Virus record (IMG/VR): IMGVR_UViG_3300036985_006248
Span: 64,001-128,000 of that record
Source of the DNA: a virus
Length of the DNA: 64,000 nucleotides
Direction: 5' to 3' (one strand)
Position 1 is the stretch's first letter, and each line of letters opens with the position of its first letter. The position numbers were made by a program, and so were the translations under genes. Under the pieces are notes generated by a model that was not told the origin of the DNA, searched no databases, and saw only the letters and a program-made list of their open reading frames with translations. This document shows, in pieces, positions 3,625 to 57,156 of the stretch.

Positions 3625-3852
3625 TTACCAATCTTCGAAAGTCGTAATCTTAAAGACCGAAGTTTCTTTGAACAACATCGTTTTCTCTTTAGACACAGTG
3701 GAAGATTCAAATAAAAACATCCAAATAGCAACATATGAGGAAGGGACACTCAATAATCTTATCAATGCTGAATCAGAATTTTCTACTAATATACCGCGCC
3801 CAAACACTGTGCCATCTTTATTATTTACTCTAACTAAATCTCCCACTTTCAT
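3625..3852 (-). CDS. small GDL-family (SH3/KOW/Tudor-like) protein
   Basis: MKVGDLVRV...G.G.LV...W pattern. Confidence 0.6.
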   Translation of the reverse strand: MKVGDLVRVNNKDGTVFGRGILVENSDSALIRLLSVPSSYVAIWMFLFESSTVSKEKTMLFKETSVFKITTFEDW

Positions 3853-3855
3853 GGC

Positions 3856-4047
3856 CTACGCCCTTGCAATAAAATTATTATGTGCCTTGCCAATAGCATT
3901 GGTAATCTTAATATAATGTTCCGGGTGTTTCATCATCAGCGATGCTAAAAATTCTTGCTTTGTCAATATAGCCATATGTCCAAAGACATAAACAATACTA
4001 TCAATATCTTTGTCTGAAAGATTCTCGGGCATTTGCATTTGGGTCAT
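3856..4047 (-). CDS. hypothetical protein
   Basis: 63 aa ORF with AAGGA SD. Confidence 0.6.
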   Translation of the reverse strand: MTQMQMPENLSDKDIDSIVYVFGHMAILTKQEFLASLMMKHPEHYIKITNAIGKAHNNFIARA

Positions 4048-4151
4048 TGTTATCCTTGGGTGAGAGATGGGTAGGTTTTGATGCTACCTGCTATACTATA
4101 ACCGTTCATAAGTTGTATGTCAAGAAAAGTATATTTGTTTCAAACAATGTT

Positions 4152-4724
4152 TTATCTTTCTAGATAGAATCTCCAAGCAATTGGCACACTTTTTTCTATA
4201 TTATAATAGCCGTCTGTGGCTTCCTGAAGATATGGTAATTTATTCGGCTTCTTGGGTTGCTTGACGAGTTTGAAGCCAGATTCTTTTAACGACTTATTGG
4301 CTTTTTTCTGATTACACCCATAACAGCAGGTGATAACGTTTTCCCACATTGTTTTTCCACCAGACGTTTTAGGAATTATGTGGTCAATCGTAAAAGTTGC
4401 AAAGGTGACATGATTTTGACAATATTGACACCTGCCCTCGTCACGGGTCCAAACATTCTTACGAGAAAAACGAATAGCCGAGTTTCTTCTCTTACCTATA
4501 GCATTGTTCTTAAATATAACAACGGCTGGTACTCTCATAGACATTGAGGGTGACCGAATTACTTCATCGTATTCTTCTAGCGTTGTTACTTTATTAGAAT
4601 AGATAAGTGTAACAGCACGAGCCCAAGAAATAACACCAAGAGGCTCATAATTGGTGGATAAAGCTAATACTTTCATTTTTGAAACTCCGTTGGAAGTTTC
4701 ATCATACATGACCTTTTCTCCCAC
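4152..4724 (-). CDS. HNH endonuclease (McrA-like)
   Basis: RDEGRCQYC...TIDHIIP...WENVITCCYGCNQKK. Confidence 0.9.
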   Translation of the reverse strand: MGEKVMYDETSNGVSKMKVLALSTNYEPLGVISWARAVTLIYSNKVTTLEEYDEVIRSPSMSMRVPAVVIFKNNAIGKRRNSAIRFSRKNVWTRDEGRCQYCQNHVTFATFTIDHIIPKTSGGKTMWENVITCCYGCNQKKANKSLKESGFKLVKQPKKPNKLPYLQEATDGYYNIEKSVPIAWRFYLER

Positions 4725-4736
4725 GTCAAACGAGAC

Positions 4737-4955
4737 TTATTTTTTAGTTAAACCTAAATCTACTGTGAAATTTTCATTAACATGGTTACAACTATTGCAT
4801 GCAAATACTGGAACAGGAATAAACGTGTCCTTCCCATCTTCCATCAGTAAGCCAGAAATACTCTTTATAACAAATACTTGCTTCAAAAATTCACAGCCAC
4901 ATTTTTCACAAGCTATAGTCTTTGCGTTATCAAGTTGCATTTTATTTAATTTCAT
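4737..4955 (-). CDS. small zinc-ribbon protein
   Basis: CEKCG...CNSCNH. Confidence 0.65.
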   Translation of the reverse strand: MKLNKMQLDNAKTIACEKCGCEFLKQVFVIKSISGLLMEDGKDTFIPVPVFACNSCNHVNENFTVDLGLTKK

Positions 4956-4964
4956 TTTTATCCT

Positions 4965-5288
4965 TTATAAACTCATGGTAATCATACCAACAAATACTAA
5001 TATCAACCCTATCATTTTATGCCCATGTAACTCGTTATTCAAAATGAAATAAGCAGTTGTATACCAAGCGGCATGAAAAAAGAATGTCTGAAATGCCGAC
5101 ATTAATGTTAATGGTAACATTTTTGCACGTAATTGATAAGCAAAAATACTAGCACTAATGAAACTAGTTAAATAAGTCCAATACCAAGCCATGTTACCCG
5201 CTCGTATTGACTTAGCCATAAATGCTGCCATTACGCCGTTTGCTATTAATATTAACGCTACGATTACAACTTTTATTTGATTGTTCAT
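4965..5288 (-). CDS. small 4-TM membrane protein (SMR/EamA-like)
   Basis: 107 aa with four hydrophobic segments, ending GLILVFVGMI. Confidence 0.6.
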   Translation of the reverse strand: MNNQIKVVIVALILIANGVMAAFMAKSIRAGNMAWYWTYLTSFISASIFAYQLRAKMLPLTLMSAFQTFFFHAAWYTTAYFILNNELHGHKMIGLILVFVGMITMSL

Positions 5289-5299
5289 TTTGTCTTTTC

Positions 5300-6001
5300 T
5301 TATGCTTTACAAATTTCATATTTTCCAACCATTTTTATTATTTGTTGTAATTTTGAATTAGGGTGATTAGTTTTAATAACTGCCCAATAGGCACCTTTAT
5401 CGATAGCTATTGATTCATATCTACGTATTTGTTTTGTAAGTATTTTTATTCCACACGATAAATTATTATATGGATTGAGTATCGTCTTTCGTTTATCATC
5501 GTCTGAAAGCTTAGAATCTTTCGACCAATCAAAGCTACAATTATGGTATAGGGAATCTATGTAGCCGACCTGCAACAATCCTTCACTTATCAATGGTGCG
5601 CTAGTAACAGGGTCTATAGAATTTGAAACACTCGCTATTCTCGCACTGGGGTTGAATGTGCTTTCATAAAATGACATTGATGCAATGAGTTGCCCCCAGA
5701 CATTTATCTTTTGATTTTTATTCAAGTTTTTATAATTAGGACAAAAATGCTTTATATCTTTGGCGCTATTTAAAATTTCAAAGTTATTTTCTATTTGTAA
5801 GAATACATACTCGCTCCACCTTTTCCTACTTGGATTGTTTTTTTCCCATTCTAGTGGGAGCATTGTTTCCTCTATTTTTTCTTCTTCTTCAATCATTATT
5901 TCTGGAATTATTACAACTTGTGGAGTATGACAAGCGAGTTTATGCCCAACAAACAACACACTGTTTAATAATAGAAACATATATAATATTTTTGTTTTCA
6001 T
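5300..6001 (-). CDS. SLT-family lytic transglycosylase with N-terminal signal/anchor
   Basis: YESTFNP (catalytic Glu), SEGLLQ and NLSCGIKIL motifs. Confidence 0.8.
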   Translation of the reverse strand: MKTKILYMFLLLNSVLFVGHKLACHTPQVVIIPEIMIEEEEKIEETMLPLEWEKNNPSRKRWSEYVFLQIENNFEILNSAKDIKHFCPNYKNLNKNQKINVWGQLIASMSFYESTFNPSARIASVSNSIDPVTSAPLISEGLLQVGYIDSLYHNCSFDWSKDSKLSDDDKRKTILNPYNNLSCGIKILTKQIRRYESIAIDKGAYWAVIKTNHPNSKLQQIIKMVGKYEICKA

Positions 6002-6156
6002 AGTTTATTTTTAACAAAATTTAAATAATATATTAAATTTAGCTTTAACCTTTGTGGGTCTTAGTATACTCTTATTTCTGAGTATTTTATACTGCCACAT
6101 CTATTTCCCCAAACAGGATGTTTCCATCAACCGCTTGAGATAATGGATTATTGATG

Positions 6157-6357
6157 CTACTCTTTTATTAATTTAACGATTACTAGCTCATCATCATAAA
6201 AATATAAGGGGTCTGCTTCCTCGTCATAAGCAATCTCTATGTAATAATCTCCATTATTCCCCATTGTATCGATATACGTGACAAAGCCATATAGAGTGTC
6301 GCTATCACGAACTCTGACAAAATCATCGATATCAACCAAACATTGTCTTCTGGCCAT
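6157..6357 (-). CDS. small GDL-family-like protein
   Basis: DIDDFVRV...GFV...YYIE. Confidence 0.55.
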   Translation of the reverse strand: MARRQCLVDIDDFVRVRDSDTLYGFVTYIDTMGNNGDYYIEIAYDEEADPLYFYDDELVIVKLIKE

Positions 6358-6484
6358 AGTATTATAAATAGTATTGCAAATGATAAAGCCCCACCAGCGC
6401 GGGGCAACACAACCGCGAAGCGGGGGAGAATTTTTTTGCCTTTCCTACCATACCACCCTTCCCCCTGCCCGTGTGGATTGTTTT

Positions 6485-7045
6485 TTACTTTATTGTGGTA
6501 TTGTGACGTTCAAGAAACGCATAGAACTTCTTACGCAAGAAATTCGGGAACGGAAACATCCATAGATACTCAGAAGAACTAAAAAGAGATATATAATATT
6601 CAATAACTGCTTTGTTGATATAACCATAACGGTCACGTTCAGCTATCATACTTTCACAGTAACCACGATATTCCCAATATGCGCGCATTGTAAAAACAAA
6701 CGGCAGCGGAAAGAACAGGTAACTCAATTCAAAAAGTACAGGCCAACGTCGCGCATCGCGTAGATGAACAAGTTCGTGACGCAATACGTCGTATCCAATC
6801 GCAGTACCAATCAAACGTCGTGGCATATAGACTTTGCCAAACACGGCAGTTATATAATTGGTCATAAAAGATTTATTCCAGAATGTCATCAAAGTAACGG
6901 CATAAAGTGCTCTCATAAAAAAAGATTCATCCTTTGGCACTACTTTGAAGCGTGGAAACTCTTTTGATATGTTTATAACAAGTTCATTATATTTGAGGTA
7001 ATCATCGCCATAATACTCAGTCATCTTTTTTATCTCCTTTCTCAA
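6485..7045 (-). CDS. HExxH-containing hypothetical protein
   Basis: LRHELVH...WEYRGY. Confidence 0.65.
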   Translation of the reverse strand: MRKEIKKMTEYYGDDYLKYNELVINISKEFPRFKVVPKDESFFMRALYAVTLMTFWNKSFMTNYITAVFGKVYMPRRLIGTAIGYDVLRHELVHLRDARRWPVLFELSYLFFPLPFVFTMRAYWEYRGYCESMIAERDRYGYINKAVIEYYISLFSSSEYLWMFPFPNFLRKKFYAFLERHNTTIK

Positions 7046-7265
7046 TAATTAATAATTGTATTTCTTCAGGATATGCAATGTAAAATTTATTTGTTTTTAT
7101 ACCATAAAGCCTATACCAACTGTTTTCCACCAACCCATAATTACATTCAACAACAACAGCTAACTCAGGCGGGCGGCTTAATATTTGAACCTCCACCAAA
7201 GCACCCACCGGAATTTTTTTCTTTAGATATTGACCTTTTTTCTTCCTTTTGCCTTTACCTCGCAT
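7017..7265 (-). CDS. small GDL-family-like protein
   Basis: IPVGALVEV...AVVV...WY. Confidence 0.55.
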   Translation of the reverse strand: MRGKGKRKKKGQYLKKKIPVGALVEVQILSRPPELAVVVECNYGLVENSWYRLYGIKTNKFYIAYPEEIQLLIIEKGDKKDD

Positions 7266-7423
7266 ATTATAAATAGTTTTATACTATTATATAAACGCAA
7301 TATTAGCATAGTATTTTGTGACGCTCTAGGAGGCTCTAGAAACGCGATGTGAGAAAAGAGGTGGCCACCGTCTGCCCTATGGGCAGAAATGCGCGTAGGA
7401 GGCAATACAGGCGCTACAATAGC

Positions 7424-7446
7424 AAAAAGGGATGCATAGCATCCCC
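7424..7446 (-). terminator. intrinsic terminator after paralogue array 1
   Basis: GGGATGC-TAT-GCATCCC followed by TTTTT on the minus strand. Confidence 0.7.
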
Positions 7447-7449
7447 TGA

Positions 7450-7665
7450 TTACCAAATAGTTGATTTGCGGATGTCATCGACGTTAAGCTTTAAAAAAAA
7501 TAGTTGGCTTGGTGCAATATCTTGTGGAGAACTTTTGTCACTCCATTGAATCCGATATTCAGGAGACGCACCCGAAACAATTAACCCAAAGATGTACCCA
7601 CCGTTGAGAGTTGTGCATGCAACGAGGTCGCCTACATTGTATTCCATGTTCTGTTGTGTTTTCAT
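7450..7665 (-). CDS. GDL-family paralogue
   Basis: YNVGDLVAC...GLIV...YRIQW; start placed at the ATGA overlap with the upstream stop. Confidence 0.7.
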   Translation of the reverse strand: MKTQQNMEYNVGDLVACTTLNGGYIFGLIVSGASPEYRIQWSDKSSPQDIAPSQLFFLKLNVDDIRKSTIW

Positions 7666-7952
7666 AATCCCAAGTTTTGTTTTAAACGGAAAAATGATTC
7701 CCGATATCTCCAAATCATCCATTCGGATAATCTCCTGCTTTCTTCGCCGTTTGCCCAATCGATATTGTATAGTGGCGTTACCTGTCCCTCAACAACAGTC
7801 CAGTCAAGAGATTGTATCCACCCAAGAAGCACTTCATCCCGTGTATCTACATAGTATGCAGCAACAAGGTCACCAATATTGTGTTTATGGCAAACTACAT
7901 CTTTTTTCACAGGCACATCTTTTTTCTTTCTTTTAGGTAAACTCTTCGCCAT
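7662..7952 (-). CDS. GDL-family paralogue
   Basis: HNIGDLVAA...GWI...YNIDW. Confidence 0.7.
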   Translation of the reverse strand: MAKSLPKRKKKDVPVKKDVVCHKHNIGDLVAAYYVDTRDEVLLGWIQSLDWTVVEGQVTPLYNIDWANGEESRRLSEWMIWRYRESFFRLKQNLGL

Positions 7953-8197
7953 GTGTCAATTAAGTTTTCGTCATATTTATAGAATTGTTCGCCGGGTGCT
8001 GCATGGCTCCAACATACAAGGTATAAGGTAGAATCGCTTTGCTTCTGTGCTCGACTAGAACGTTTGGTTCCTTTTACTATACCAGTAATCCACCCAATAC
8101 GGTAGTCTTGTTTAATATATAAATCGGATTGATATTGAGCACCGGCAGTTGTCCAAAGCATCAATAGGTCACCAATATTGTGTTTATATTTTTTCAT
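7907..8197 (-). CDS. GDL-family paralogue
   Basis: HNIGDLLML...GWI...YLVCW; ATGA overlap. Confidence 0.7.
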   Translation of the reverse strand: MKKYKHNIGDLLMLWTTAGAQYQSDLYIKQDYRIGWITGIVKGTKRSSRAQKQSDSTLYLVCWSHAAPGEQFYKYDENLIDTWRRVYLKERKKMCL

Positions 8198-8457
8198 GGG
8201 CTGCATTTCTTTTTTATTTTTAAAGCATTATTCTTCCACACTCTGACCGAGTTCTCGTCGTGCTGTCGCGGTGGCCAACCTTCTCTGTCATCACTCCATA
8301 CCACAGAATAAAGTGTAGAAAGTTCATCGTCATATGGATTATATTTTACCTTAACAACCCACCCAATCAACGTCGAAGCCGCAATCGAACCGACGATTAT
8401 AAGCAGATCACCAACCTTGATATCTTGATCACCAACCTTGATATCTTGTTTTTTCAT
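8194..8457 (-). CDS. GDL-family paralogue
   Basis: IKVGDLLII...GWV...YSVVW; ATGA overlap. Confidence 0.7.
   Translation of the reverse strand: MKKQDIKVGDQDIKVGDLLIIVGSIAASTLIGWVVKVKYNPYDDELSTLYSVVWSDDREGWPPRQHDENSVRVWKNNALKIKKKCSP
8406..8447. repeat. exact 21-bp tandem duplication (GATCACCAACCTTGATATCTT x2) duplicating QDIKVGD
   Basis: read directly from the sequence. Confidence 0.9.
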
Positions 8458-8720
8458 AAGCCAAATTCCTTTTTTAATTTCAAAGCGTGTCTGTGCCATT
8501 TATCAATATGATACTCAGAATACTCTTTCGGTCTTCTCCCCCCTTCATCACTCCAAGCTGCTTTATAACACATTTCTAAAGAGCCATCTGGTGGCACAAG
8601 CTCAGTAATCCATCCACAGTGAAGCGCCTTGCGCGCCAGCGGTGACGCTCCAATGTAAATATCTTGTATCACCAATAAATCACCAACTTTGTATTTATGT
8701 TTTCGAGTTTTATTTTTCAT
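8454..8720 (-). CDS. GDL-family paralogue
   Basis: YKVGDLLVI...GWI...YKAAW. Confidence 0.7.
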   Translation of the reverse strand: MKNKTRKHKYKVGDLLVIQDIYIGASPLARKALHCGWITELVPPDGSLEMCYKAAWSDEGGRRPKEYSEYHIDKWHRHALKLKKEFGL

Positions 8721-8968
8721 AGACCCATCCTAGCGCGTTCTTGCAAGTAGTTAAAGCGCCATGATTCTATATCTACTTCACGGTAAGAACCCACCATCTT
8801 TTCCCCGTTGGGACTGAATATATTTAACCACTCTATATCATAGATAAATGAGTGGGGGTGGCGCTCGACCGGATGATAAGACACCATGATTACCATGGCA
8901 AGACGGCAACCTTCGACTCCAAAAGTGCTCCATAACAGATCGCCAACGCTATACTGTGGAGGTTTCAT
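8717..8968 (-). CDS. GDL-family paralogue
   Basis: YSVGDLLW...YDIEW...WRFNYL. Confidence 0.7.
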   Translation of the reverse strand: MKPPQYSVGDLLWSTFGVEGCRLAMVIMVSYHPVERHPHSFIYDIEWLNIFSPNGEKMVGSYREVDIESWRFNYLQERARMGL

Positions 8969-9234
8969 AGACCCATGTTACCACGGTGCGCGAGGTAGTG
9001 CAAGCGCCACTCTGTTACATCCACTTCTCCATAACTCCCATATCTCTCAAGAAACGGAAAATTTTTTTCTGTATTAAGCCATTCTATAACATAATATTTA
9101 TCCCCTTCTACAACTCCATGCACTCCAACAATCATTGCAAGCGAAAAAAATGGCACACCGTCGTTATGGGCTTTTGTCCACTCGCGTTCAATCAACAGGT
9201 CACCAACTTCCAAATTTGTATATTTCTTTTTCAT
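8965..9234 (-). CDS. GDL-family paralogue
   Basis: LEVGDLLI...YVIEW...WRLHYL. Confidence 0.7.
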   Translation of the reverse strand: MKKKYTNLEVGDLLIEREWTKAHNDGVPFFSLAMIVGVHGVVEGDKYYVIEWLNTEKNFPFLERYGSYGEVDVTEWRLHYLAHRGNMGL

Positions 9235-9572
9235 TTGATTTGCTTTTTAATCATCAAGTAGATGTCACGCCAGCCACTCAGTGTTCTATATTTGTAGAAA
9301 AAAGTTTGGTTTGGAATATTGTTCCATTCAACCGCATACCAAATCTTTTCAATGGTTTTGAATTGCTCAATCATATAACCGGGTGGTGTCGCATTCACGT
9401 CCACAATCCAACCAACATTGTATTGTTGAATTTCCGATTCATCTTCATCATAATCGTCGGGATCGGGAAACTCATCGCGGTCATCGGGCCAAGGAGCACC
9501 GCGTGGTGAAGTATTGGGATAGGGTTTTATTTTCACAAACAGCAGGTCGCCAATCGATAACTTCGCGTTCAT
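9231..9572 (-). CDS. GDL-family paralogue with acidic insertion
   Basis: LSIGDLLF...GWI...YAVEW...WRDIYL. Confidence 0.7.
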   Translation of the reverse strand: MNAKLSIGDLLFVKIKPYPNTSPRGAPWPDDRDEFPDPDDYDEDESEIQQYNVGWIVDVNATPPGYMIEQFKTIEKIWYAVEWNNIPNQTFFYKYRTLSGWRDIYLMIKKQIK

Positions 9573-9802
9573 ATACTGTTCTCGTTTCTGTAATCCAAAT
9601 ATGCGTTACGGAGTATTAATATGAGGTTGTCATCGTATATCATGGTATCCACCAATGCATTATTATCATTGTGTGGGTTTAACCAAAGCACTTCGGCTTC
9701 GTTGGTGAATATTCGCATCACTGCACCAATCATTGTCGATTGGTCTATGTTAACAAGCATCACGAGGTCGCCAACTTTGATGTCTTCAAAGGAAATTGTC
9801 AT
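9569..9802 (-). CDS. GDL-family paralogue
   Basis: IKVGDLVM...EVLW...AYLDYR; start uncertain. Confidence 0.65.
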   Translation of the reverse strand: MTISFEDIKVGDLVMLVNIDQSTMIGAVMRIFTNEAEVLWLNPHNDNNALVDTMIYDDNLILILRNAYLDYRNENSI

Positions 9803-9968
9803 AAATTTTTTTGGGAAATTTTTTCTCCGTGCCCAATTGTACACCATTTTGAAATGGGTAGCAAGAAGTGAAATTTCGGATTTTTATCTGGGGTTGGCGG
9901 GTGACCCTAGCCCGTTTCCCCAGCAATATCAGCCGGTTACCAGACATACATTCCGGCCATATCCCCCC

Positions 9969-10352
9969 CTATACGGGGAGGGAGGGGAGGGGGGCACCCC
10001 TATAGCCAAGCATGAAAGTCTCACTGCACTCTTTATTAAACAGTTTCATGTCATATGCATGCAAACATTCGGGCAGGTTAAACATCAATGCTTGACCCGC
10101 ATCCTTAAACAGCCTGCTCCATTCGGCAGGTGGTTCACCGTGTAACTCCACCACTTCCCCAACACGCGCAGCGAGGCAACCATATGCGCGCACAGCTAAC
10201 AGCAAGGCTTCCCATTCTCTGGGAGCGTCTACCTTAAGAAAGAACTCGACACGCCAATCCAACTCCTCACCAGTGAACGACCACATGCCGTTCAACCTTG
10301 AGAGGGTCAGCTTGACTTTATTTATTTCGTGCCGAATCATTTTGTCAATCAC
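9969..10352 (-). CDS. hypothetical early protein
   Basis: 127 aa ORF coupled to the upstream gene. Confidence 0.55.
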   Translation of the reverse strand: MIDKMIRHEINKVKLTLSRLNGMWSFTGEELDWRVEFFLKVDAPREWEALLLAVRAYGCLAARVGEVVELHGEPPAEWSRLFKDAGQALMFNLPECLHAYDMKLFNKECSETFMLGYRGAPLPSLPV

Positions 10353-10738
10353 GCCTCGTTCATATCAAGCATCGCGGTAACATGGTCGCGGTCACGCTCT
10401 GCCGTTGCATATGCTTCCATTGCACGGTTAACGAGGTCCACATATTCCTGAGTTGCCTCAAGAAAGGTTGCGAAGTTAACAGCAACGGCGGCAGCTTCCT
10501 CCGCTTCCTGAATGTCCTCCGCGATGCCTTCACGGGCGGCGAGGTCGGCATCACTGAAAGCATTGTCAAGCTCAGTTGGGAATTCCATGTCTTCGTTCTC
10601 CTCAGTCACCACGTTAACTTCCTCGCCAATTTCGTACACGTCAGACTCTCCGGTGTAAATATCTTTCTCATGGACAAACAGTCTGCCCATCACCTCGCCC
10701 GTCACCACCTCACCCGTCAAGATGTTTTGCGCTTGCAT
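10349..10738 (-). CDS. acidic hypothetical early protein
   Basis: 129 aa, AAGGA SD. Confidence 0.7.
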   Translation of the reverse strand: MQAQNILTGEVVTGEVMGRLFVHEKDIYTGESDVYEIGEEVNVVTEENEDMEFPTELDNAFSDADLAAREGIAEDIQEAEEAAAVAVNFATFLEATQEYVDLVNRAMEAYATAERDRDHVTAMLDMNEA

Positions 10739-10747
10739 CTTTTCCTT

Positions 10748-11008
10748 TCAGTCTACCCACGTCCAACCACGAGCGGGAAGCATATCCATGAGGTCAGTCG
10801 GTGCGGCTGACATGATGACATAGGGAGCGATTTCCGCTCGCGAGATGTCGCCCGCTTCCTGTTCATATCCGTCAACAAGAGCAAAGCGAATATCCGACTC
10901 GCGTTTATTATCAAGCAGGAAATACTCCCAACGGTTCCGGGTCATAAGCCACCCATACACCTCAACGGACTGCGACCCATCCAGACGCTTCATAGTGCGG
11001 GGCTTCAT
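10748..11008 (-). CDS. hypothetical early protein
   Basis: 86 aa, GGAGG SD. Confidence 0.7.
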   Translation of the reverse strand: MKPRTMKRLDGSQSVEVYGWLMTRNRWEYFLLDNKRESDIRFALVDGYEQEAGDISRAEIAPYVIMSAAPTDLMDMLPARGWTWVD

Positions 11009-11010
11009 AA

Positions 11011-11238
11011 TTACGCCTCCTGAATCTTGGTGACAGTGAGATTGAACTTCGGGAGCGCCGAGGCAATGTCCTTGGCGTGAATCTTCGACATGGCCCAGAT
11101 GCGGAACGGTTCACCTTCGTCGTCCACAGCATCGACGCAGTGCGTTGCAGTGCGGCACTCAATTTCGAGGAACGCGGTGAGCAGCGGGTCACGGGTGAGC
11201 ATCTTCTTCGTGGAATTCGTCGCGTTGGTGTCGTTCAT
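11011..11238 (-). CDS. hypothetical early protein (MNDT start, leaderless)
   Basis: ATG 7 nt after a -10 box. Confidence 0.7.
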   Translation of the reverse strand: MNDTNATNSTKKMLTRDPLLTAFLEIECRTATHCVDAVDDEGEPFRIWAMSKIHAKDIASALPKFNLTVTKIQEA

Positions 11239-11300
11239 GTGAAGTAGTATCTCATGGCAGAGGGTTTACGGCAACAACTATTTCGATGAATGATTCTTAT
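11239..11300 (-). promoter_or_regulatory. sigma70-type early promoter with upstream TTCAT box
   Basis: TTGCCG-N17-GATACT-N7-ATG. Confidence 0.7.
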
Positions 11301-11503
11301 TCCAGTTCGGCCAACAACGCCAGCAGCTTATCCATGAGAGCGCCATGCTCCCGATTGACACGCTCGCGATAATAGCGGTTCGCCATATCATGAAACTCGG
11401 GCGGGTTGTTATCAAGGTGTTCGATTGTCGCAGCCAGCATTTCCTTGCACTTTGTAAGCTGACTTTCCATCGTCGCAATATATGCGCCATCGGCCATCGA
11501 CAT
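11297..11503 (-). CDS. hypothetical early protein
   Basis: 68 aa, AGGAG SD. Confidence 0.65.
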   Translation of the reverse strand: MSMADGAYIATMESQLTKCKEMLAATIEHLDNNPPEFHDMANRYYRERVNREHGALMDKLLALLAELE

Positions 11504-11504
11504 A

Positions 11505-11660
11505 TTAGCTCTCCTGATTCGAGGTGGACTTGTTCGCGCGGCGGTTCATGCGGGTGATTTCGCGCTTGAGGAAACGGACGGTGGAAGCCTTCACCACGAG
11601 CCACTTGCGGTCAGACTTGAGATAACCGCGCATCGTCTTCGCTCTGCTCGTCGTATCCAT
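11505..11660 (-). CDS. basic 51-aa early protein (MDTTSRAKTMRGYLKSDRKW...), below the ORF-track cutoff, leaderless
   Basis: ATG 7 nt after TATTAT; stop abuts the next gene. Confidence 0.65.
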   Translation of the reverse strand: MDTTSRAKTMRGYLKSDRKWLVVKASTVRFLKREITRMNRRANKSTSNQES

Positions 11661-11720
11661 GAGACACATAATACACCCGCTCAGTCCCTACGTCTACATC
11701 TTTCAGCATGAAAGAATCTG
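11661..11720 (-). promoter_or_regulatory. sigma70-type early promoter
   Basis: AGATTCTTTCATGC...TAGACG-N17-TATTAT-N7-ATG. Confidence 0.75.
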
Positions 11721-11741
11721 ATACTTGCCCCACCCCGCCAG

Positions 11742-11813
11742 TAGATTCTTTCACTGGATATTAGTTTTCGGGTGTGATATAATGGTGCCAGCCGCGCGAA
11801 AGCGCGGCTGGGT
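11742..11813 (+). repeat. promoter-hairpin cassette copy 1
   Basis: TGGATA-N17-TATAAT followed by CCAGCCGCGC-GAAA-GCGCGGCTGG. Confidence 0.85.
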
Positions 11814-11848
11814 AGCCACTGTTATTAGCTGGTACCCACGCGCATTTA

Positions 11849-12109
11849 TTAGCGGGTCAAATCTTCCACATAAGCGGTCTTGGCCTTTGTCTCAGCGAGC
11901 AGCTTTTCCACCTGAGCGGTAATCTTTTCGAGGTTGCCCTTCATACCGTATTGCTTACGGGCAATTGTCGTCGCCTGTGGAATTTTGCTTGACATTCGCA
12001 TACCGTGCGCCTGCATTTTCAGACCCTGCAACAGCGAGGCGAGACGATAAACCTCAATGCCGTTTCCGGTCATGATAACGCCACCATTACCAAAAGCTTC
12101 AATGGACAT
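11849..12109 (-). CDS. hypothetical early protein (start MSIEAF)
   Basis: AGGAG SD before ATG at 12109. Confidence 0.65.
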   Translation of the reverse strand: MSIEAFGNGGVIMTGNGIEVYRLASLLQGLKMQAHGMRMSSKIPQATTIARKQYGMKGNLEKITAQVEKLLAETKAKTAYVEDLTR

Positions 12110-12137
12110 TTTTTTCTCCTGAATTTGTAAGAGGTTT

Positions 12138-12380
12138 TTACAGGTCGGCAATCATTTGGTCAAGCTCATCACAATCAAGCGTCTCGTCAGCATAAGAAAC
12201 ATCGTCTGGGGTCTTCGTTGCCCCACACATTTCCCACATGGCGTAACGAAAGTCGTTGTAGGGATTCCTACGGTTCCGAAACGACCTTGCGAGTCGGTAA
12301 AGACCCTCCTCGTTCTGAATATAGAGCGCGACGTTCCACGTTTCATAATTCGCCCATCCCTGATAAGTCGTGTCGTTCAT
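12138..12380 (-). CDS. conserved-type phage hypothetical (YQGWANYETWNVALY), MNDT start, leaderless
   Basis: motif recalled from phage hypotheticals; ATG 7 nt after TATAAT. Confidence 0.75.
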   Translation of the reverse strand: MNDTTYQGWANYETWNVALYIQNEEGLYRLARSFRNRRNPYNDFRYAMWEMCGATKTPDDVSYADETLDCDELDQMIADL

Positions 12381-12440
12381 GTGGCCTATTATACATGAGG
12401 GAGGTCTAGACGTCTACGCTTTTCTGTATGAAAGGTTTTA
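12381..12440 (-). promoter_or_regulatory. sigma70-type early promoter
   Basis: TTTCAT...TAGACG-N17-TATAAT-N7-ATG. Confidence 0.75.
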
Positions 12441-12470
12441 CTAGTGGACCCACCGCCCATTAGAATAAAA

Positions 12471-12543
12471 CAGTAGATATTCTTTTTTAGGTGTGATATA
12501 ATAGTGCCAGCCGCGCGAAAGCGCGGCTGGGTCACCCCAGACC
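12471..12543 (+). repeat. promoter-hairpin cassette copy 2
   Basis: TAGATA-N17-TATAAT, identical hairpin, then GTCACCCCAGACC. Confidence 0.85.
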
Positions 12544-12724
12544 ACGCAAGACTTACCCGCTTCCTTCTGTACAGAGGGTGAAGATTAGCAAACCGAATAC
12601 GGGAAAAAACACAATCAAAAAGAGAACGTCCATATTCACACCTGCTCGAAAAGGTCAACAATCATATAGCTGAAAAAGAAAGTGGTGGCAGCGAAGATTG
12701 AATAGAAAATGATAGTTTCCATTA

Positions 12725-13093
12725 TTAAATCACCCCCATGCGGACAAGAATCGACGGGCACCCATGCTCACAGTGACCGTCAGGTTCAACCTGACACCCA
12801 TCCTTGCAGAGTGCAGGCACAGCGTCATCGGTAGCCCATTGCTCAAGAGCGGTCATCATTTCGGAACCATTCTCGATACAATGTTCATTGCGGAATTCTT
12901 GAAGAGTTAAACTCATGTCAATACCCTTTCCATATTTCGAGTAATCAGCAGCTTCCCAATCAGCTTCAGTCACAACGTCTTTTTTTGCTACTTTGTGCGC
13001 CCCGGCACCCTTTCGGGCAATCGCTGCAATAGCGTTGCCGTTTCGGCGGCGGGGTGAAGGCATGCTGGCTTTGATGTTCTTTGGTCTGCTCAC
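12725..13093 (-). CDS. hypothetical protein with Cys/His-rich C-terminus (CKDGCQVEPDGHCEHGC)
   Basis: GTG start overlapping the upstream stop (GTGA). Confidence 0.65.
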   Translation of the reverse strand: MSRPKNIKASMPSPRRRNGNAIAAIARKGAGAHKVAKKDVVTEADWEAADYSKYGKGIDMSLTLQEFRNEHCIENGSEMMTALEQWATDDAVPALCKDGCQVEPDGHCEHGCPSILVRMGVI

Positions 13094-13251
13094 TGTTCGT
13101 CCCGTGAGAACATCGCGGCAATCTCGTGACGGTCTTCGTCGTCGCGACACGCCTTGCAAACCGGCGCGCCGAAGCCTTCGTGCTCAATCAGGAGGGTCGC
13201 GGGTTCGTCAATGCAGCGGGAGCAAATGCAGTCGTAAGCGGTGTCGTTCAT
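13090..13251 (-). CDS. 53-aa Zn-binding-like early protein (MNDTAYDCICSRC...CKAC), leaderless, not in the ORF track
   Basis: translated by hand; ATG 7 nt after GATAAT. Confidence 0.65.
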   Translation of the reverse strand: MNDTAYDCICSRCIDEPATLLIEHEGFGAPVCKACRDDEDRHEIAAMFSRDEQ

Positions 13252-13312
13252 GTGGGCTATTATCTCACGGGAATGACTTTACGTCTACATCTTTCAGCAT
13301 GAATGATTCTTA
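13252..13312 (-). promoter_or_regulatory. sigma70-type early promoter
   Basis: AGAATCATTCATGC...TAGACG-N17-GATAAT-N7-ATG. Confidence 0.75.
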
Positions 13313-13318
13313 TACTCT

Positions 13319-13516
13319 TCAGTAGTCTGATTCGATGCGCTCACCATCGGTGCTGTAATCCGAGTTTACAAAGATGTCGGGGCGGTACTTCGCCAAACGC
13401 ATCGCCTTGCACTTTCCGCACACTCGCGCGACGGGAATCCCGCGAGCGTCGTTCACCCAGTAACTGCCGTCAAACTTAGTGTGGCGCTTGCAATCCGTCT
13501 CGGTCGTGTCGTTCAT
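13319..13516 (-). CDS. hypothetical early protein (MNDT start, leaderless)
   Basis: DARGIPVARVCGKC; ATG 7 nt after the -10 box. Confidence 0.7.
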   Translation of the reverse strand: MNDTTETDCKRHTKFDGSYWVNDARGIPVARVCGKCKAMRLAKYRPDIFVNSDYSTDGERIESDY

Positions 13517-13576
13517 GTGAGGTAGTATCTCATGGCCATGCTGTTATGACCAGCTTTTTCTTCATGAAACGTTCTA
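13517..13576 (-). promoter_or_regulatory. sigma70-type early promoter
   Basis: TTTCATG...TGGTCA-N17-GATACT-N7-ATG. Confidence 0.65.
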
Positions 13577-13597
13577 ACGTTCCCCCCGTCCACCTAG

Positions 13598-13680
13598 TAG
13601 ATTCTTTCACTGGATATTCTTTTGTGGACCTGATATAATAGTGCCAGCCGCGCGAAAGCGCGGCTGGGTCACCCCAGACC
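13598..13680 (+). repeat. promoter-hairpin cassette copy 3
   Basis: TGGATA-N17-TATAAT, identical hairpin, then GTCACCCCAGACC. Confidence 0.85.
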
Positions 13681-13700
13681 GCTCGTCACCATATCTTTTC

Positions 13701-13895
13701 TTATGTCACCCCATAGCGCAGCTTCAATGCCGCATCGTACATCTCAGAAAGAATATTAATACCTTCGTTGATTTGAATTTGTGTAGCTTCTGGATTCAAG
13801 GTGACATATGTTTTAATCAACGCGGAAATTTCTTTGATTTCGCTTTCACTCCATGGTCTATGAGGAACATTAATATAAACTTTTGATTCATTCAT
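13701..13895 (-). CDS. hypothetical protein
   Basis: 64 aa ORF. Confidence 0.55.
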   Translation of the reverse strand: MNESKVYINVPHRPWSESEIKEISALIKTYVTLNPEATQIQINEGINILSEMYDAALKLRYGVT

Positions 13896-13949
13896 TTTAT
13901 TTGTTTTCCTTTGTTAGTCCCAAGTATCTCAGAGAGTGTTTTCAAGACG

Positions 13950-14615
13950 TCACGCGAAATAATCCTTCTGAGCGGGAGTCATTTTCTTGACGCCGTGATA
14001 AACCAGACCGATATTAACAACACCTTCGATTGCAGGCATATCGCTAACGTTTCCGTCTTCGTAGCCTGCGCTGATGCGGTCACTGTCAGTCGCAAAGATG
14101 CGCGCGTGAGATTGAGTCAGGTTAACCTTATCGTCAAACTTTCCACCAAGCGATTGCACGATGCGGAGATTTGCAGGTCGGTCAGTTTCAATGTCAAGGT
14201 GCAAACTCTTAGTGTAGGCATAAAAGGTTACATTAGGAGTGAAAAGGGCAATAGCCTTCCATGCGTTCAAGTAGTCTTGTGAGAAGAAATCGCCAGAGTC
14301 ATGGATACGGACAACATTATACCGCTTGCCAAGCTTCAAGAGGTCTTCAATTGCCATGCCAACGAAACCCATCGCCCCCACGGTGAGAAAGAGATTAAGA
14401 TTATGGTTTCGCGCATTGAAGACGCTTGCCATACCGTAACGACCTTGCTTAGCGTAGCAGACACCTCGGCAAGCGCCAGCACCGGGGCAAGTATTACCCA
14501 CCCCGTCAATCTTGAAGTCTGCCGGAATTCCGTAGCCCAGTACGCGCAGAGTTTCACCACCAGTCTTAACAAGCTTCGCGTTGCCTTCGGTCCATTTGAG
14601 GTTATAGGCGGTCAT
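13950..14615 (-). CDS. GP88-like protein (Cys-cluster, radical-SAM-like)
   Basis: GNAKL...TCPGAGACRGVCYA...RIHDSGDF...FYAYTK; AAGGA SD before ATG 14615. Confidence 0.75.
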   Translation of the reverse strand: MTAYNLKWTEGNAKLVKTGGETLRVLGYGIPADFKIDGVGNTCPGAGACRGVCYAKQGRYGMASVFNARNHNLNLFLTVGAMGFVGMAIEDLLKLGKRYNVVRIHDSGDFFSQDYLNAWKAIALFTPNVTFYAYTKSLHLDIETDRPANLRIVQSLGGKFDDKVNLTQSHARIFATDSDRISAGYEDGNVSDMPAIEGVVNIGLVYHGVKKMTPAQKDYFA

Positions 14616-14664
14616 GGTTTTTTCCTTTGGTGTGGGTCTGTTTGTTTCCCTATCGACTTCACAC

Positions 14665-14718
14665 ATACTACACCCTACACGCCCACAGGTCTAGCTTTTT
14701 TTGCATGAATGAATCTAA
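14665..14718 (-). promoter_or_regulatory. sigma70-type early promoter
   Basis: AGATTCATTCATGC...TAGACC-N17-TAGTAT. Confidence 0.7.
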
Positions 14719-14818
14719 TGTTGGGGCGGCTAGCATAAGAGCAGCTAATAGGTAAAGACTCTTGACAAAAGGATTCCGTTGACCTTTCTGTAAAGTCGTG
14801 CTACAATGACAGTCAAGG

Positions 14819-15097
14819 TCAGAGCCAGACAACGGCACCACAGTCACTGTGGAATAACACGCATGATGACGTTTGTACTGTATCGTGCTTAATATCATAT
14901 GTCAGATACTTCCATCTGTTAGCATATACGTTTTTAAATACATCAGTGATTAGTGTGAGTGATACCGCTATCGCTTCCTCTGACTCTCCCAAGCTGGAGT
15001 CATAACAAAGCCTCCCAATGTACTTCCGGTAGAAGGCTTCGTCTTGTTCGTCGCCGTCTTGTTCGTCACTCACAGGAAAGTAACTCCTTGCAACCAA
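14819..15097 (-). CDS. GDL-family-like paralogue (YRKYIG subtype)
   Basis: YRKYIGRL...ITDV...WKY. Confidence 0.55.
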   Translation of the reverse strand: MVARSYFPVSDEQDGDEQDEAFYRKYIGRLCYDSSLGESEEAIAVSLTLITDVFKNVYANRWKYLTYDIKHDTVQTSSCVLFHSDCGAVVWL

Positions 15098-15294
15098 AGG
15101 TCATCAGCTATGGTGTAATGGGTCGATCCATTTGTGAGCGAGTGATATATAAAATAAAATCTATGTTCCCCAAGAGTGGCACTCGGTTGCATACCGATAA
15201 TCATATACAAGGGCCACCGGGGTTGCCCAAGAACATCGATGAGGCGATGCTTATAAAACAGTTTGCCAATGTATTTCTTTAATACTTCTTGCAT
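15070..15294 (-). CDS. GDL-family-like paralogue (KYIG subtype)
   Basis: KKYIGKLF...MIIG. Confidence 0.55.
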   Translation of the reverse strand: MQEVLKKYIGKLFYKHRLIDVLGQPRWPLYMIIGMQPSATLGEHRFYFIYHSLTNGSTHYTIADDLWLQGVTFL

Positions 15295-15497
15295 ATGCCC
15301 TCATGTGTGCGCGCACGCCCACCCCTACCCTAGCACGGTAGTACCACAGTGTCAACAGGATTCCCAGCCCCCGAAGGGGGGAATATTACATATATAAACA
15401 ACAAAATACCGCCTTATATACTATAAGGCGGCTGGCTATACCTATATTAATAGAGTTACAGTTTTTCATGACCCCCCCCTCCCACACTGGAAGGGCG

Positions 15498-15710: not shown

Positions 15711-15742
15711 AGCTTTATCTCTCCACGTCCAATTGGTACAGA

Positions 15743-15928: not shown

Positions 15929-15956
15929 AGCTTTCTCCTTCAGGGTTAGTTACATA

Positions 15957-16208: not shown

Positions 16209-16251
16209 AGAACCGATAGTAGCATGCCTCTGGCGGAAGTCAAGAAAAAAG

Positions 16252-16324: not shown

Positions 16325-16330
16325 ATACTA

Positions 16331-16452: not shown

Positions 16453-16454
16453 TG

Positions 16455-48043: not shown

Positions 48044-48229
48044 TTATTTAGTTCTTACAACATCGTAAAGTTGCTGATGAGTGGGTATGCCCCATCTTAA
48101 CGTTTCAAACTGAAAATATCCTGAATGTAATCCTTCATGTCCTTCAGCTTTGGCACAAAGTAATGTATCATACATGGGGTGGACTGTGCAACAGGTTTTA
48201 TTTTGTTTTAGTTTGTCTTTATTTTCCAT
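48044..48229 (-). CDS. hypothetical protein
   Basis: 61 aa ORF. Confidence 0.5.
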   Translation of the reverse strand: MENKDKLKQNKTCCTVHPMYDTLLCAKAEGHEGLHSGYFQFETLRWGIPTHQQLYDVVRTK

Positions 48230-48473
48230 ATTTTCTCTCGTATTCTTGAATGGTTATTAACGTCAGATGTTCGAAAGCATATTTATCATAGTCCCCCGTG
48301 TACACATTTCTTTTCGAAAAATATAACTGGACATATCTATCAGCTAAAAGCTCATTATGCTTCCAATCTACAAACCCCATTACTAATACTGGCTCAGGGT
48401 AAGCTGGTTCCGCCACATGCAAAAATAACTCGCCAATTTTGATATCTTCAAAGGATATAGAATTATAACTCAT
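48219..48473 (-). CDS. GDL-family paralogue
   Basis: ISFEDIKIGELF, matching ISFEDIKVGDLV of the 9569 gene. Confidence 0.6.
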   Translation of the reverse strand: MSYNSISFEDIKIGELFLHVAEPAYPEPVLVMGFVDWKHNELLADRYVQLYFSKRNVYTGDYDKYAFEHLTLITIQEYERKYGK

Positions 48474-54899: not shown

Positions 54900-54965
54900 A
54901 ACTGTTTCCTTTAAAAAAAAAGTACCTATAGTAATTATCGGAGAATCATTGAACTAGTTGCTTAA

Positions 54966-55175
54966 TTACAATATTTTTTTTAATTCTAGTTTCCATCCCA
55001 AGGCTGTATACTCATCAACCCAATTACGTCTATTATCGTTCCAATATATTATCCATCGTCGATCATGATGTCCGGTTTCTTCTACGACGATACCAAATTT
55101 CTTTCTCAAATCGTCCCAAAGCAAATCACCTGTTTTTATACTCAAGATATTACTTCTTTCTAGTGGAGATATCAA
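54966..55175 (-). CDS. GDL-family paralogue
   Basis: IKTGDLLW...FGIV...WIIYW. Confidence 0.65.
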   Translation of the reverse strand: MISPLERSNILSIKTGDLLWDDLRKKFGIVVEETGHHDRRWIIYWNDNRRNWVDEYTALGWKLELKKIL

Positions 55176-55422
55176 TATTTTCTTTTATCTCTTCGCCTAT
55201 AGTAACATCAATTTTATGCAGCGTCCAATATACGGAATCATATTTTTGTTTTATGTACTGAAGCTCAAAAAGATAATCTAGATTCATGTTTTCTGAAAAT
55301 GTCTCTCGTATATCACCATCGCTATCTATAAAAGCATACATCTTTCTCTTGCAAGTGCATTGTTGGTCAGGATATCCCGCGTCACAATACGCACAATTAT
55401 ACCATTTGGTTGCATCGTTCAT
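55150..55422 (-). CDS. hypothetical protein
   Basis: 90 aa ORF. Confidence 0.55.
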   Translation of the reverse strand: MNDATKWYNCAYCDAGYPDQQCTCKRKMYAFIDSDGDIRETFSENMNLDYLFELQYIKQKYDSVYWTLHKIDVTIGEEIKENIDISTRKK

Positions 55423-55628
55423 TAAAGAACCTTTACTTGCATATATTCGTATTCTTCTGCCTTAATAAATTCATCAAAAGAGTATGTTCTAACTTCTTCG
55501 GACTCGGTATCTAAATACGTAATATACGCATCCTTAAGAAAAGTCATCAGCTTTTTCTTATTTGAAAAATACCACTCTTCGGTAGATGGATAATGATAAA
55601 GTTTATAGATTTTCATTTGGCTGCTCAC
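55422..55628 (-). CDS. hypothetical protein
   Basis: 68 aa coupled ORF. Confidence 0.55.
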   Translation of the reverse strand: MSSQMKIYKLYHYPSTEEWYFSNKKKLMTFLKDAYITYLDTESEEVRTYSFDEFIKAEEYEYMQVKVL

Positions 55629-56086
55629 GACGCGACCTCCGTGCGGAAGACCTCATTGTGCGCCCGCTTCCACGTTGAGCGGGAAGGCACCTCCTCCTCG
55701 GACTCACACACGAGGTCACGAAGCGCCTCCCGCGGCCGGTCAATCTCAGCCAGCAGCACCTCGATGGCGGACGCCATCTCCTTCGGAACCGGGTGGACGA
55801 AGCCTCGCACCTGCACCATTGCCTCGGGGTCGCTGTGCTTCTTCGGGAAACAGCCTTTCGTCGGGCAGTAGAAGCCGACAGAGCCACCGTCAACCTGCGC
55901 CGCACCGCACCGCTCGCAGCCACCATCAGCCGCATCAACCTCGGGAATGGCTGCGATTGCGTCGAGGTAGCCGTTCAGCTCGGCGTTCTTGGCCTCCAGT
56001 TCCGCGACGCGGGCTTGTAACGCCGTAACCCACGGTGTGCCGTCCAAGCAGTCTTCACATATGCAATCGCTAAAGTGTTTGCTCAT
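55625..56086 (-). CDS. hypothetical protein, mostly encoded by a high-GC segment
   Basis: 153 aa; third codon positions almost all G/C. Confidence 0.65.
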   Translation of the reverse strand: MSKHFSDCICEDCLDGTPWVTALQARVAELEAKNAELNGYLDAIAAIPEVDAADGGCERCGAAQVDGGSVGFYCPTKGCFPKKHSDPEAMVQVRGFVHPVPKEMASAIEVLLAEIDRPREALRDLVCESEEEVPSRSTWKRAHNEVFRTEVAS

Positions 56087-56182
56087 AATTTTTAGTCCTT
56101 AAAGTAAATGTTATTGCGATCCATCCACGACCAGACAAGCAACAAAACTAAAATAGCTGTATCAATTCCAGCAGTATAATAA

Positions 56183-56455
56183 TCAATATCCATATCTTTC
56201 TCTATCTAGGTCGCCTGCCGTTTCTGGCGAAGCGAGTCTAAGTTTATACAATTCAGCACGCGCTTCATCGCGTTCTCTCATAAATCTCTCATCATTTTCT
56301 TCTTTTGCCTTTTTATATGAATCGCGTTCCTTACGCATAGTTTCATAATCATTAAGCAAATCAGATAAGTGTTTCTCGTCTGCAATATTCATAGTGCCGC
56401 GAGCTACCATGTTAATACAATTTTCATAAGCTGAAAGCTTTATCTTAGGAGTCAT
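56183..56455 (-). CDS. hypothetical coiled-coil protein
   Basis: ERDEARAE. Confidence 0.6.
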   Translation of the reverse strand: MTPKIKLSAYENCINMVARGTMNIADEKHLSDLLNDYETMRKERDSYKKAKEENDERFMRERDEARAELYKLRLASPETAGDLDRERYGY

Positions 56456-56697
56456 ATCACATCCTCTATAATCAAGGGGGTATCAAGTACAATCTTTCTA
56501 CAAGACTTTGACACGTTGTTCGAACCCTTAAAGCTCAATGAACAAGCCATTCTTTGTTGGTTTGCTACTTGATTAAGTAAATCACTATTTTCCTGCTTGA
56601 GATCATTGATATACATCATAAACTGATCTCGTGAAACAAAAAAATCATTTCCATTACATTCTTCCGCTACAAGGAAATGAATATCTTCATATTTCAT
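56452..56697 (-). CDS. hypothetical protein
   Basis: 81 aa, AAGGA SD. Confidence 0.6.
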   Translation of the reverse strand: MKYEDIHFLVAEECNGNDFFVSRDQFMMYINDLKQENSDLLNQVANQQRMACSLSFKGSNNVSKSCRKIVLDTPLIIEDVI

Positions 56698-56865
56698 GGT
56701 TTTATCCTTTTTAGCCTACCAGATGCTTAGTGCTTTTCCACTCAGTAATAATTTTCCAGAAGAGGTGCAGTAAGGTGTCTCCAATATACATGTAGTTTGT
56801 ATGCCATGCAACCCAAATCTTTTTTTCTTTATATATAAGAATACTGCCGATGGTAAAATCAGTTT

Positions 56866-57156
56866 TCATAACTTTAACCACTCCTCTAAATATTCTTTAA
56901 ACGCACTGATTTCTAACTCGCTATGTGAGCGTACTCTGTTTTCTTTATTATGAATAAAGTTATCGTGCCAATAGACTTTATATACCCCCGTTTCCGCATC
57001 GACATAGACTATTGTTCCACAGCAGAAATGATCTGTATTCCATCTTGAGTGGTATTTTGCTCTGACAACCATTTCACTCACTTTGTGCGTCATTGCCTTA
57101 TTCTTCTCCAATCCTTTTTCTATGATTGCCTTTGAATAAAGTTTTCGGCTTGTCAT
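56866..57156 (-). CDS. GDL-family-like protein (true start probably near 57093)
   Basis: HKVSEMV...GTIV...YKVYW. Confidence 0.55.
   Translation of the reverse strand: MTSRKLYSKAIIEKGLEKNKAMTHKVSEMVVRAKYHSRWNTDHFCCGTIVYVDAETGVYKVYWHDNFIHNKENRVRSHSELEISAFKEYLEEWLKL

Follow-up and report, generated by a model that had tools for sequence, protein, structure and literature searches.

The phage DNA described here carries an expanded family of small proteins with a predicted SH3-like barrel fold, encoded in two tandem arrays of short gene cassettes and at several dispersed positions. The DNA analyzed (64,000 nucleotides, hereafter the window) comprises bases 64001-128000 of the IMG/VR virus record IMGVR_UViG_3300036985_006248, which is 174,280 bp long, is estimated to be 96% complete, and belongs to an uncultured phage of freshwater or sediment origin. 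All plausible genes of the window, including every family member given below, are on the minus strand. Judged by profile searches, the family has about 25 firm members plus perhaps 6-10 very divergent or degenerate relatives, and approximately 7% of the phage genes fall into this one barrel family.

To define the family, a first hidden Markov model (HMM) was built from only the eight open reading frames (ORFs) of array 1 at 7662-9847 and was searched against 344 ORFs of the window. This HMM retrieved the ORFs of array 2 at E values of 3e-10 to 1e-4 and also those at 56866-57156, 17199-17423, and 7450-7758. A preliminary description of this DNA had proposed a single homologous family and had set retrieval of one array by a profile of the other as the test beforehand; the proposal held, since the array 1 profile recovered both array 2 and singletons. 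Iteration on the window ORFs converged at 26 ORFs. A foreign-only HMM, made from metagenomic relatives that share less than 70% identity with every protein of the window, retrieved 25 of these 26 (E 1.6e-15 to 1.7e-5), and the ORF that it missed (19748-19996, E 0.4) is listed as a borderline member recruited solely by the window-trained HMM. A six-frame search of the whole 174-kb genome returned the same 26 ORFs and none outside the window at E ≤ 0.01; one ORF past the window end is borderline (E 0.007).

The preliminary description had counted about 35 paralogues. Its eight further candidates (3625-3852, 6157-6357, 7017-7265, 15070-15294, 15498-15710, 22512-22835, 36836-37174, and 48219-48473) gave hhalign P values of 4e-4 to 0.06, compared with 0.06-0.8 for 16 control ORFs, a better result but not a significant one. 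The candidate at the left edge of the finding, 3625-3852 (P 4e-4 over 41 columns; HMM E 0.05-0.5), resembled the family only in its N-terminal GDLV...G.GI half. Because 25 ORFs were retrieved by the foreign-only HMM and the remaining candidates are borderline, the count was lowered from 35 to about 25.

The arrangement in two arrays with dispersed members was confirmed: nine members are in array 1 (7450-9847), ten in array 2 (26971-29276), four in or beside the tRNA cluster, and two are singletons. Array 1 consists of the cassettes 9569-9847 (E 6.2e-12; all E values in this paragraph are those of the foreign-only HMM), whose likely start is an internal ATG near 9802; 9231-9572 (E 2.8e-9), in which a long acidic insertion extends the beta1-beta2 loop and which shows ATGA-type stop/start overlaps with its neighbors; 8965-9234 (E 4.8e-11), which forms the closest paralogue pair (42% identity) with the following cassette 8717-8968 (E 2.6e-11); 8454-8720 (E 3.3e-13); 8194-8499 (E 1.9e-15); 7907-8206 (E 1.6e-15); 7662-7952 (E 1.8e-14); and the last cassette 7450-7758 (E 2.8e-11), with a called product of 71 amino acids. 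Array 2 consists of 29013-29276 (E 2.3e-9), 28820-29044 (E 6e-15), 28578-28841 (E 7.8e-13), 28333-28581 (E 1.1e-11), 28106-28336 (E 4e-11), 27895-28149 (E 8e-13), 27690-27950 (E 2.2e-9), 27476-27721 (E 4.8e-13), 27264-27479 (E 1.7e-5), and 26971-27267 (E 2.9e-7). The tRNA cluster contains the members 16958-17242 (E 7.9e-6), 17199-17423 (E 4.8e-13), and 17598-17807 (E 7.2e-8), and a fourth, 15957-16208 (E 4.7e-7), is located at its edge just downstream of tRNA-Gln (16251-16324). The singletons are 54966-55175 (E 3.9e-6) and 56866-57156 (E 9.7e-10), the latter at the right edge of the finding.

The members are stand-alone mini-proteins of about 65-110 amino acids with a pairwise identity between paralogues of 15-42%. 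The motif columns of the scaffold are fixed, namely IGDLV in beta1, LGMI in beta2, Y-x-(I/V)-E-W in beta3, a Tyr in beta4, and R-x-N-Y-L-x-Y-R-K in a C-terminal helix. The three inter-strand loops vary in sequence and also in length (6-26, 7-22, and 7-23 residues), which bears out the earlier view that a fixed scaffold carries diversified loops. As regards a surface aromatic cage for methylated Lys or Arg of the Tudor/chromo-like kind, the invariant Tyr and Trp of Y-x-I-E-W, judged from the strand periodicity, probably face the core together with Ile/Val and are thus buried. The isoelectric point (pI) spans 4.6-10.3, with acidic or near-neutral values (pI 4.6-6.7) in 9 of 26 members, and basic surfaces are thus not shared by the whole family; a reading of all members as basic nucleic-acid binders was rejected for this reason.

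AlphaFold2 models were made with family alignments for one member of each array, 8194-8499 and 28820-29044. The model of 8194-8499 (mean predicted local distance difference test score, pLDDT, 81.5) has strands at residues 32-36, 43-53, 62-68, and 78-81 and a helix at 82-99, and that of 28820-29044 (pLDDT 90.1) has strands at 15-17, 23-29, 34-39, and 48-53 and a helix at 58-73. Both models therefore have the same topology, beta1-beta4 followed by a C-terminal helix with no N-terminal helix, and the shared fold that had been predicted for the two arrays was found in the pair compared. Both models fall within the class of SH3-like small beta-barrels, defined by four to five antiparallel strands that close into a barrel of about 60 residues, and in the predicted fold the C-terminal helix packs against the barrel. 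Neither model has the N-terminal helix followed by a five-stranded bent sheet that marks Sm/LSm-like proteins. The top VIA-align matches of the models were SH3-fold domains, including a de novo SH3 barrel (Z 5.2-5.7). A homodimer prediction for two copies of 28820-29044 scored 0.30 against a mark of 0.42, which speaks neither for nor against self-association.

Structure comparison placed the models within a broad class of small barrels. VIA-align against 48,161 chains gave Tudor domains (Tbtudor, PHF20L1, SMN, TDRD3), chromo-barrel, CAP-Gly, and NusG KOW, as well as UvrD/PcrA Tudor, CarD, HspQ, VapX, and YorP, all at Z of about 5-6, values below 8 that by the calibration of the tool indicate a small-barrel arrangement in common rather than membership of a specific family. 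Foldseek gave no significant match, its best rows being chromo-barrels (MRG15, MSL3, Eaf3) and Tudor domains at E 0.2-0.9. A predicted-structure search gave weak rows (template modeling score 0.57-0.62) that included PcrA/UvrD Tudor, KOW, DUF4314, and DUF3104 clusters; a language-model-feature search gave only unnamed clusters (score 0.89), and a homologue search with a second family alignment only 17 unnamed small proteins.

Sequence libraries added a single, weak link. A window-only profile matched proteins of the diatom Nitzschia (P0145) and the grass Aristida (P0108) at E of about 2-6e-5 over 1.84e9 proteins, scores that are sums of 7-9-bit repeats, and the alignments pass through the Y-x-I-E-W...Y...N-Y pattern. 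The Nitzschia protein has eight Tudor/Agenet repeats (Pfam PTM_DIR17_Tudor, Agenet, TUDOR) and the Aristida protein has Agenet. A profile search of PDB gave the MPP8 chromodomain as its best row, which was not significant (E 0.44). In Pfam, PHROG, and NCBIfam, no member scored above threshold and no model covers the family. When 10 window members were scanned against Pfam at E ≤ 1, HAS-barrel and CdiI were the only models listed. The thresholds of PF00567 and PF05641 were not reached, and among 82 family members at E ≤ 0.05 the sole Tudor-type match was Tudor_5 (E 0.045). No Pfam match to KOW (PF00467) was found in the 10 window or the 82 family members, and this similarity is structural only (NusG, Z 5.6-5.7). 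At E ≤ 10, PF02559 (CarD/Mfd RID) matched nothing in the 174-kb genome, whereas it did match 12 of 14 control genomes; one of the 82 members touched phrog_1690, to which no function is assigned. The family itself is undescribed; the label SH3/KOW/Tudor-like of the preliminary description is right for the fold class, with a weak sequence link to Tudor/Agenet in addition.

The cassettes are packed in an operon-like manner. At 13 cassette ends, an ATGA-type stop/start overlap joins the cassette to the next gene, and such overlaps in head-to-tail arrays suggest that the cassettes are transcribed together and coupled in translation. Array 1 has the appearance of a single operon with translational coupling, because it combines these overlaps with a candidate sigma-70-like promoter in front (9864-9836 on the minus strand, TTGCTA-17-TACAAT, 9 of 12 in a consensus scan and a pattern match only) and a terminator-like hairpin with a 9-bp stem and a T run directly 3' of the last cassette (7447-7427, minus strand). 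In both arrays, purine-rich AGG/AAG/GGA codons encode C-terminal tails rich in Lys, Arg, and Gly (e.g., ...RARMGL and ...KKEFGL), and these codons sit at the expected ribosome-binding site of the next overlapping cassette. The final Leu of the tails is explained by the xTA-TGA overlap with ATG, which forces a Leu codon. Part of the apparent conservation of the tails may accordingly be a dual-coding constraint.

A scan of 1.84 billion representative proteins found 315 relatives at E ≤ 1e-3, nearly all unannotated and 60-100 amino acids long. Tandem arrays were present on other metagenomic contigs, with at least 13 cassettes in L002-L005, 13 in L006, and 6 in L008. Array 2 occupies a defined locus downstream of a gene for a PurA-like protein and between two conserved non-family genes. 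The upstream bounding gene (29287-29742, minus strand) contains a strong terminator-like hairpin (29704-29731), and its homologue L011:11614-12042 bounds a locus with one cassette; the downstream bounding gene (26486-26974, minus strand) has its counterpart after the single L011 cassette in L011:12532-13002, matched by position and size and not by formal alignment. At this syntenic locus, 1 cassette was counted in L011, 10 in the window, 13 in L006, 18 in L010, and 22 in L013, where the PurA-like proteins of L011, L010, and L013 are 75-76% identical; the comparison of copy number across related phages, which had been proposed as a check, thus revealed large differences. Two partial records had 23 and 25 copies, relatives with a PurA identity of 69% or less had 0-4, and five records of 162-211 kb, estimated to be 65-100% complete, had 0-1. 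Between L010 and L006, the flanks share 68-82% DNA identity, whereas the arrays gave no alignment at all.

Turnover was also visible between near-identical strains. The contig L001 is 98% identical to positions 1-11297 of the window, but carries one extra cassette, directly downstream of the homologue of 8717-8968 and before that of 8454-8720, with the 11-nt direct repeat GGGTCTATGAA on both sides. In the same contig, the array 1 cassettes 9569-9847 and 9231-9572 are fused in frame into one two-domain ORF of 201 amino acids (L001:2466-3071) through a minor alteration close to the stop/start overlap. Between cassettes, short repeats recur at the segment coding for GDL, such as 22 identical bases at 7867-7888 and 8166-8187, and could mediate gain and fusion events. 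Diversification by a diversity-generating retroelement was rejected, as no match to RVT_1 (reverse transcriptase) was found in the genome and the repeats within the arrays are only 14-28 nt long. No joint skipping a cassette of array 2 was found in the contigs of four runs over 15500-31500, where cover was patchy. The term 'gene accordion' used earlier was not upheld as worded: the large differences in copy number and the one-cassette insertion or deletion between strains 98% identical are borne out, whereas recent amplification was rejected since the top paralogue pair is only 42% identical and the orthologous cassettes evolve under ordinary purifying selection (dN/dS 0.2). These contig comparisons indicate a lineage-specific expansion with a changing repertoire, in which whole cassettes are gained, lost, replaced, and fused.

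Two metagenomic proteins have multi-unit architectures. P0036 (144 amino acids) likewise has a two-domain form, and P0085 (2293 amino acids, unannotated) contains at least nine repeats whose similarity to the family is confined to the beta1-beta2 hairpin, K-I-G-D-x-V-I-D-x-x-G-K-L-G-x-I.

Selection on the cassettes was assessed at two depths of divergence. Between L010 and L013 (synonymous rate dS of about 0.3-1.2), 14 orthologous cassettes had ratios of nonsynonymous to synonymous rates (dN/dS) of 0.04-0.39, pooled 0.20, which matches the 0.21 of 14 neighboring genes and differs from the 0.94 of a spurious overlapping ORF; the cassettes are therefore real, constrained genes. Between the window and three contigs of 98-99.4% identity, the cassettes differed at 8 synonymous and 37 nonsynonymous positions, giving a ratio of the respective polymorphism levels (pN/pS) of 1.18, and the neighbors at 51 and 54 positions, giving 0.28 (Fisher p 4.6e-4). 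Of 38 amino-acid changes, 31 were in loop columns, insertions, or tails, and none was in the motif cores. The contrast between cassettes and neighbors is robust, and relaxed selection and diversifying selection on the surface are both candidate causes.

For the function of the family, we tentatively favor, with a confidence slightly short of even, loop-specific protein binders directed at host takeover or defense targets. Each cassette would be an independent binding module on the barrel-plus-helix scaffold, with specificity set by the loops. The whole set would be made together from the coupled operons, probably early in infection, and its members would attach to different host macromolecules and thereby block or divert them; of these, host proteins of takeover or defense are the likeliest. 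The phage clade would exchange these modules as cassettes, and the cassette sets would differ between phage lineages because the hosts differ. A more far-reaching version, a rapidly exchanged, operon-encoded repertoire of Tudor/KOW-like mini-binders (up to 25 or more per genome and 1-22 at one locus) in which each member neutralizes a different host immune or takeover target as part of a germline-encoded 'binder library' on one fixed scaffold, appears doubtful.

Several points weigh against protein binding of this kind. We infer binding only from the fold class of the models and the evolutionary pattern; the structural matches, with Z below 8, are generic, and small barrels bind RNA and DNA as well. 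The pN/pS of 1.18, which is based on 45 changes from three metagenomic contigs, some of them near indels, is not significantly above 1 (binomial p 0.42), and at greater divergence the evolutionary rate of the cassettes does not exceed that of their neighbors. With near-identical paralogues absent (maximum 42%), the expansion is read as old and of the birth-and-death type, with no current amplification. The early timing is based on one weak consensus match to a promoter.

Alternatively, the proteins could be nucleic-acid binders, that is, RNA chaperones, factors controlling the stability or translation of mRNA, or proteins that coat DNA, whose paralogues recognize different transcripts or sites in the manner of Sm/LSm, KOW, or PWWP-type small barrels and of the T4 proteins GoF, MotB.1, and Frd.2. 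The fold class includes KOW (NusG, Z 5.6-5.7) and a PWWP domain bound to single-stranded DNA, in many members the N-terminal tail is rich in Lys/Arg and the C-terminal helix is basic, four members are in or beside the tRNA cluster, and T4 has a small family of LSm-like early proteins for which a role with RNA is suspected (PMC12152347). However, acidic or near-neutral proteins make up 9 of the 26 members, part of the Lys/Arg content of the tails falls on the purine-rich ribosome-binding site of the next overlapping cassette, the helix is C-terminal where that of the Sm fold is N-terminal, and no member reaches the KOW or LSM threshold of Pfam. Nucleic-acid binding is considered rather unlikely.

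The members might also dock on host RNA polymerase or its partners, as CarD/Mfd RID, the C-terminal Tudor of UvrD/PcrA, and NusG KOW do, and would in this way retune host transcription. CarD, CdnL, the UvrD-RNA polymerase lobe, and NusG were among the best structural matches (Z 4.7-5.7), but these Z values are no higher than those for unrelated barrels. One foreign member touched PF02559 at E 0.0045, which for a single hit among 82 scanned proteins is about chance, and PF02559 is without a match in the whole phage genome; in addition, 25 different proteins for one target are hard to explain, and this explanation is improbable. Dispensable or selfish filler, in the sense of short ORFs tolerated in plastic regions with little or no phage function, would fit the pN/pS of about 1 between near-identical strains, the coming and going of whole cassettes, and the close relative with a single cassette at the locus, but is very improbable given the purifying selection on the cassettes (orthologue dN/dS of 0.04-0.39 against 0.94 for the spurious ORF), as all 25 ORFs are intact, the scaffold motif is kept at 15-40% identity, strain differences avoid the motif cores, and arrays persist in several diverged lineages.

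The phage itself encodes a DnaE-type polymerase, a GroEL-type chaperonin, an enzyme of the GMP-reductase/IMPDH type, a short PurA-like protein, and an intein-bearing ribonucleotide reductase, whose large subunit gene at 61498-63843 is interrupted by the intein (Intein_splicing and HINT matches). A free-standing HNH endonuclease gene is at 4152-4724. Near-identical DNA was found in 18 datasets, all of them DNA metagenomes from sediment, lake, or freshwater and none an RNA dataset. Among GenBank phages, the window DNA had no match and no near relative, a tblastn search with a cassette gave no match, and the DnaE-like and PurA-like proteins were at most 37% identical to any record.

A cluster of 14 tRNA genes (16251-18814) lies within a GC-rich island at 10000-25500 (GC 0.44-0.52, compared with about 0.36 in the remainder). 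In one sediment-metagenome strain (run X2), 519 bases are added at 18154-18166 between tRNA-Pro and tRNA-Asn, and several tRNA-sized skips (60-124 bases) were seen elsewhere in the cluster in other runs. The island also holds a DUF2201 VWA/metallopeptidase gene (21223-22440), and beside it 22920-23975 is a putative ATPase gene, judged by eye from the ORF of a relative. The small island ORFs 14819-15097, 15070-15294, 19748-19996, and 22512-22835 have in common a K-Y-I-G-K-L-F-type N-terminus and may form a highly divergent sister group to the barrel family. At 24988-25403, two overlapping ORFs consist almost entirely of Ser/Gly/Arg/Trp hexamer repeats (a MRITRCFIW leader, then SGSWSGS...); metagenome contig depth spikes there, suggesting a repeat that also occurs in other DNA.

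The majority of phage genes are small and lack annotation, and here about 7% of the genes collapse into one family with a confident predicted fold, for which a definition missing from Pfam, PHROGs, and NCBIfam is now supplied. With about 25 natural variants in one genome and hundreds more in relatives, the family is a tractable set for learning the targets of small barrels. Should these targets turn out to be host proteins of defense or takeover, the arrays would record phage-host conflict in compact form and would also offer a natural, compact mini-binder scaffold.

Among known systems, the Royal family (Tudor, Agenet, and the chromo-barrel/Tudor-knot of MRG15, MSL3, and Eaf3) likewise has an SH3-like barrel of four to five strands, with a C-terminal helix in chromo-barrels. 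Royal family domains are modules of eukaryotic chromatin proteins, whereas the phage proteins stand alone and score below the Tudor, Agenet, and Chromo thresholds of Pfam; for bacterial chromo-like domains, only secreted, multi-domain proteins have been described (PMC5906684). The bacterial adaptor domains CarD/Mfd RID (PF02559), UvrD/PcrA Tudor, and NusG KOW belong to the same barrel class (Z 4.7-5.7) and resemble the phage proteins in the N-terminal strand pair G-D-x-V...G-x-G-x-I. Unlike these domains, the phage proteins are free-standing with a C-terminal helix and have no Pfam match to PF02559 or KOW. YorP of the Bacillus subtilis SPbeta prophage (PDB 2heq) is a free-standing small barrel of similar size (VIA-align Z 5.0), but it is a single-copy protein with no detected sequence similarity to the family.

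Two phage systems also bear comparison. The T4 early proteins GoF, MotB.1, and Frd.2 represent three sequence-divergent LSm-like proteins (PMC12152347) and, like the present family, are small divergent beta-barrels among the early or plastic genes of a large phage. They differ in having three members compared with about 25 here, no tandem coupled arrays, and an N-terminal helix. Bacillus phage G has roughly 35 copies of a zinc ribbon, proposed to be specific transcription factors or DNA binders (PMC7824862), and is likewise a case of one small domain present dozens of times within a single phage lineage. The fold and family are different, and for the present family cassette turnover, a syntenic locus, and a selection pattern have been documented. 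In summary, the family of barrel proteins is new; as an expansion of a small domain in a large phage, it adds a well-documented example to a known phenomenon and is not a new kind of system.

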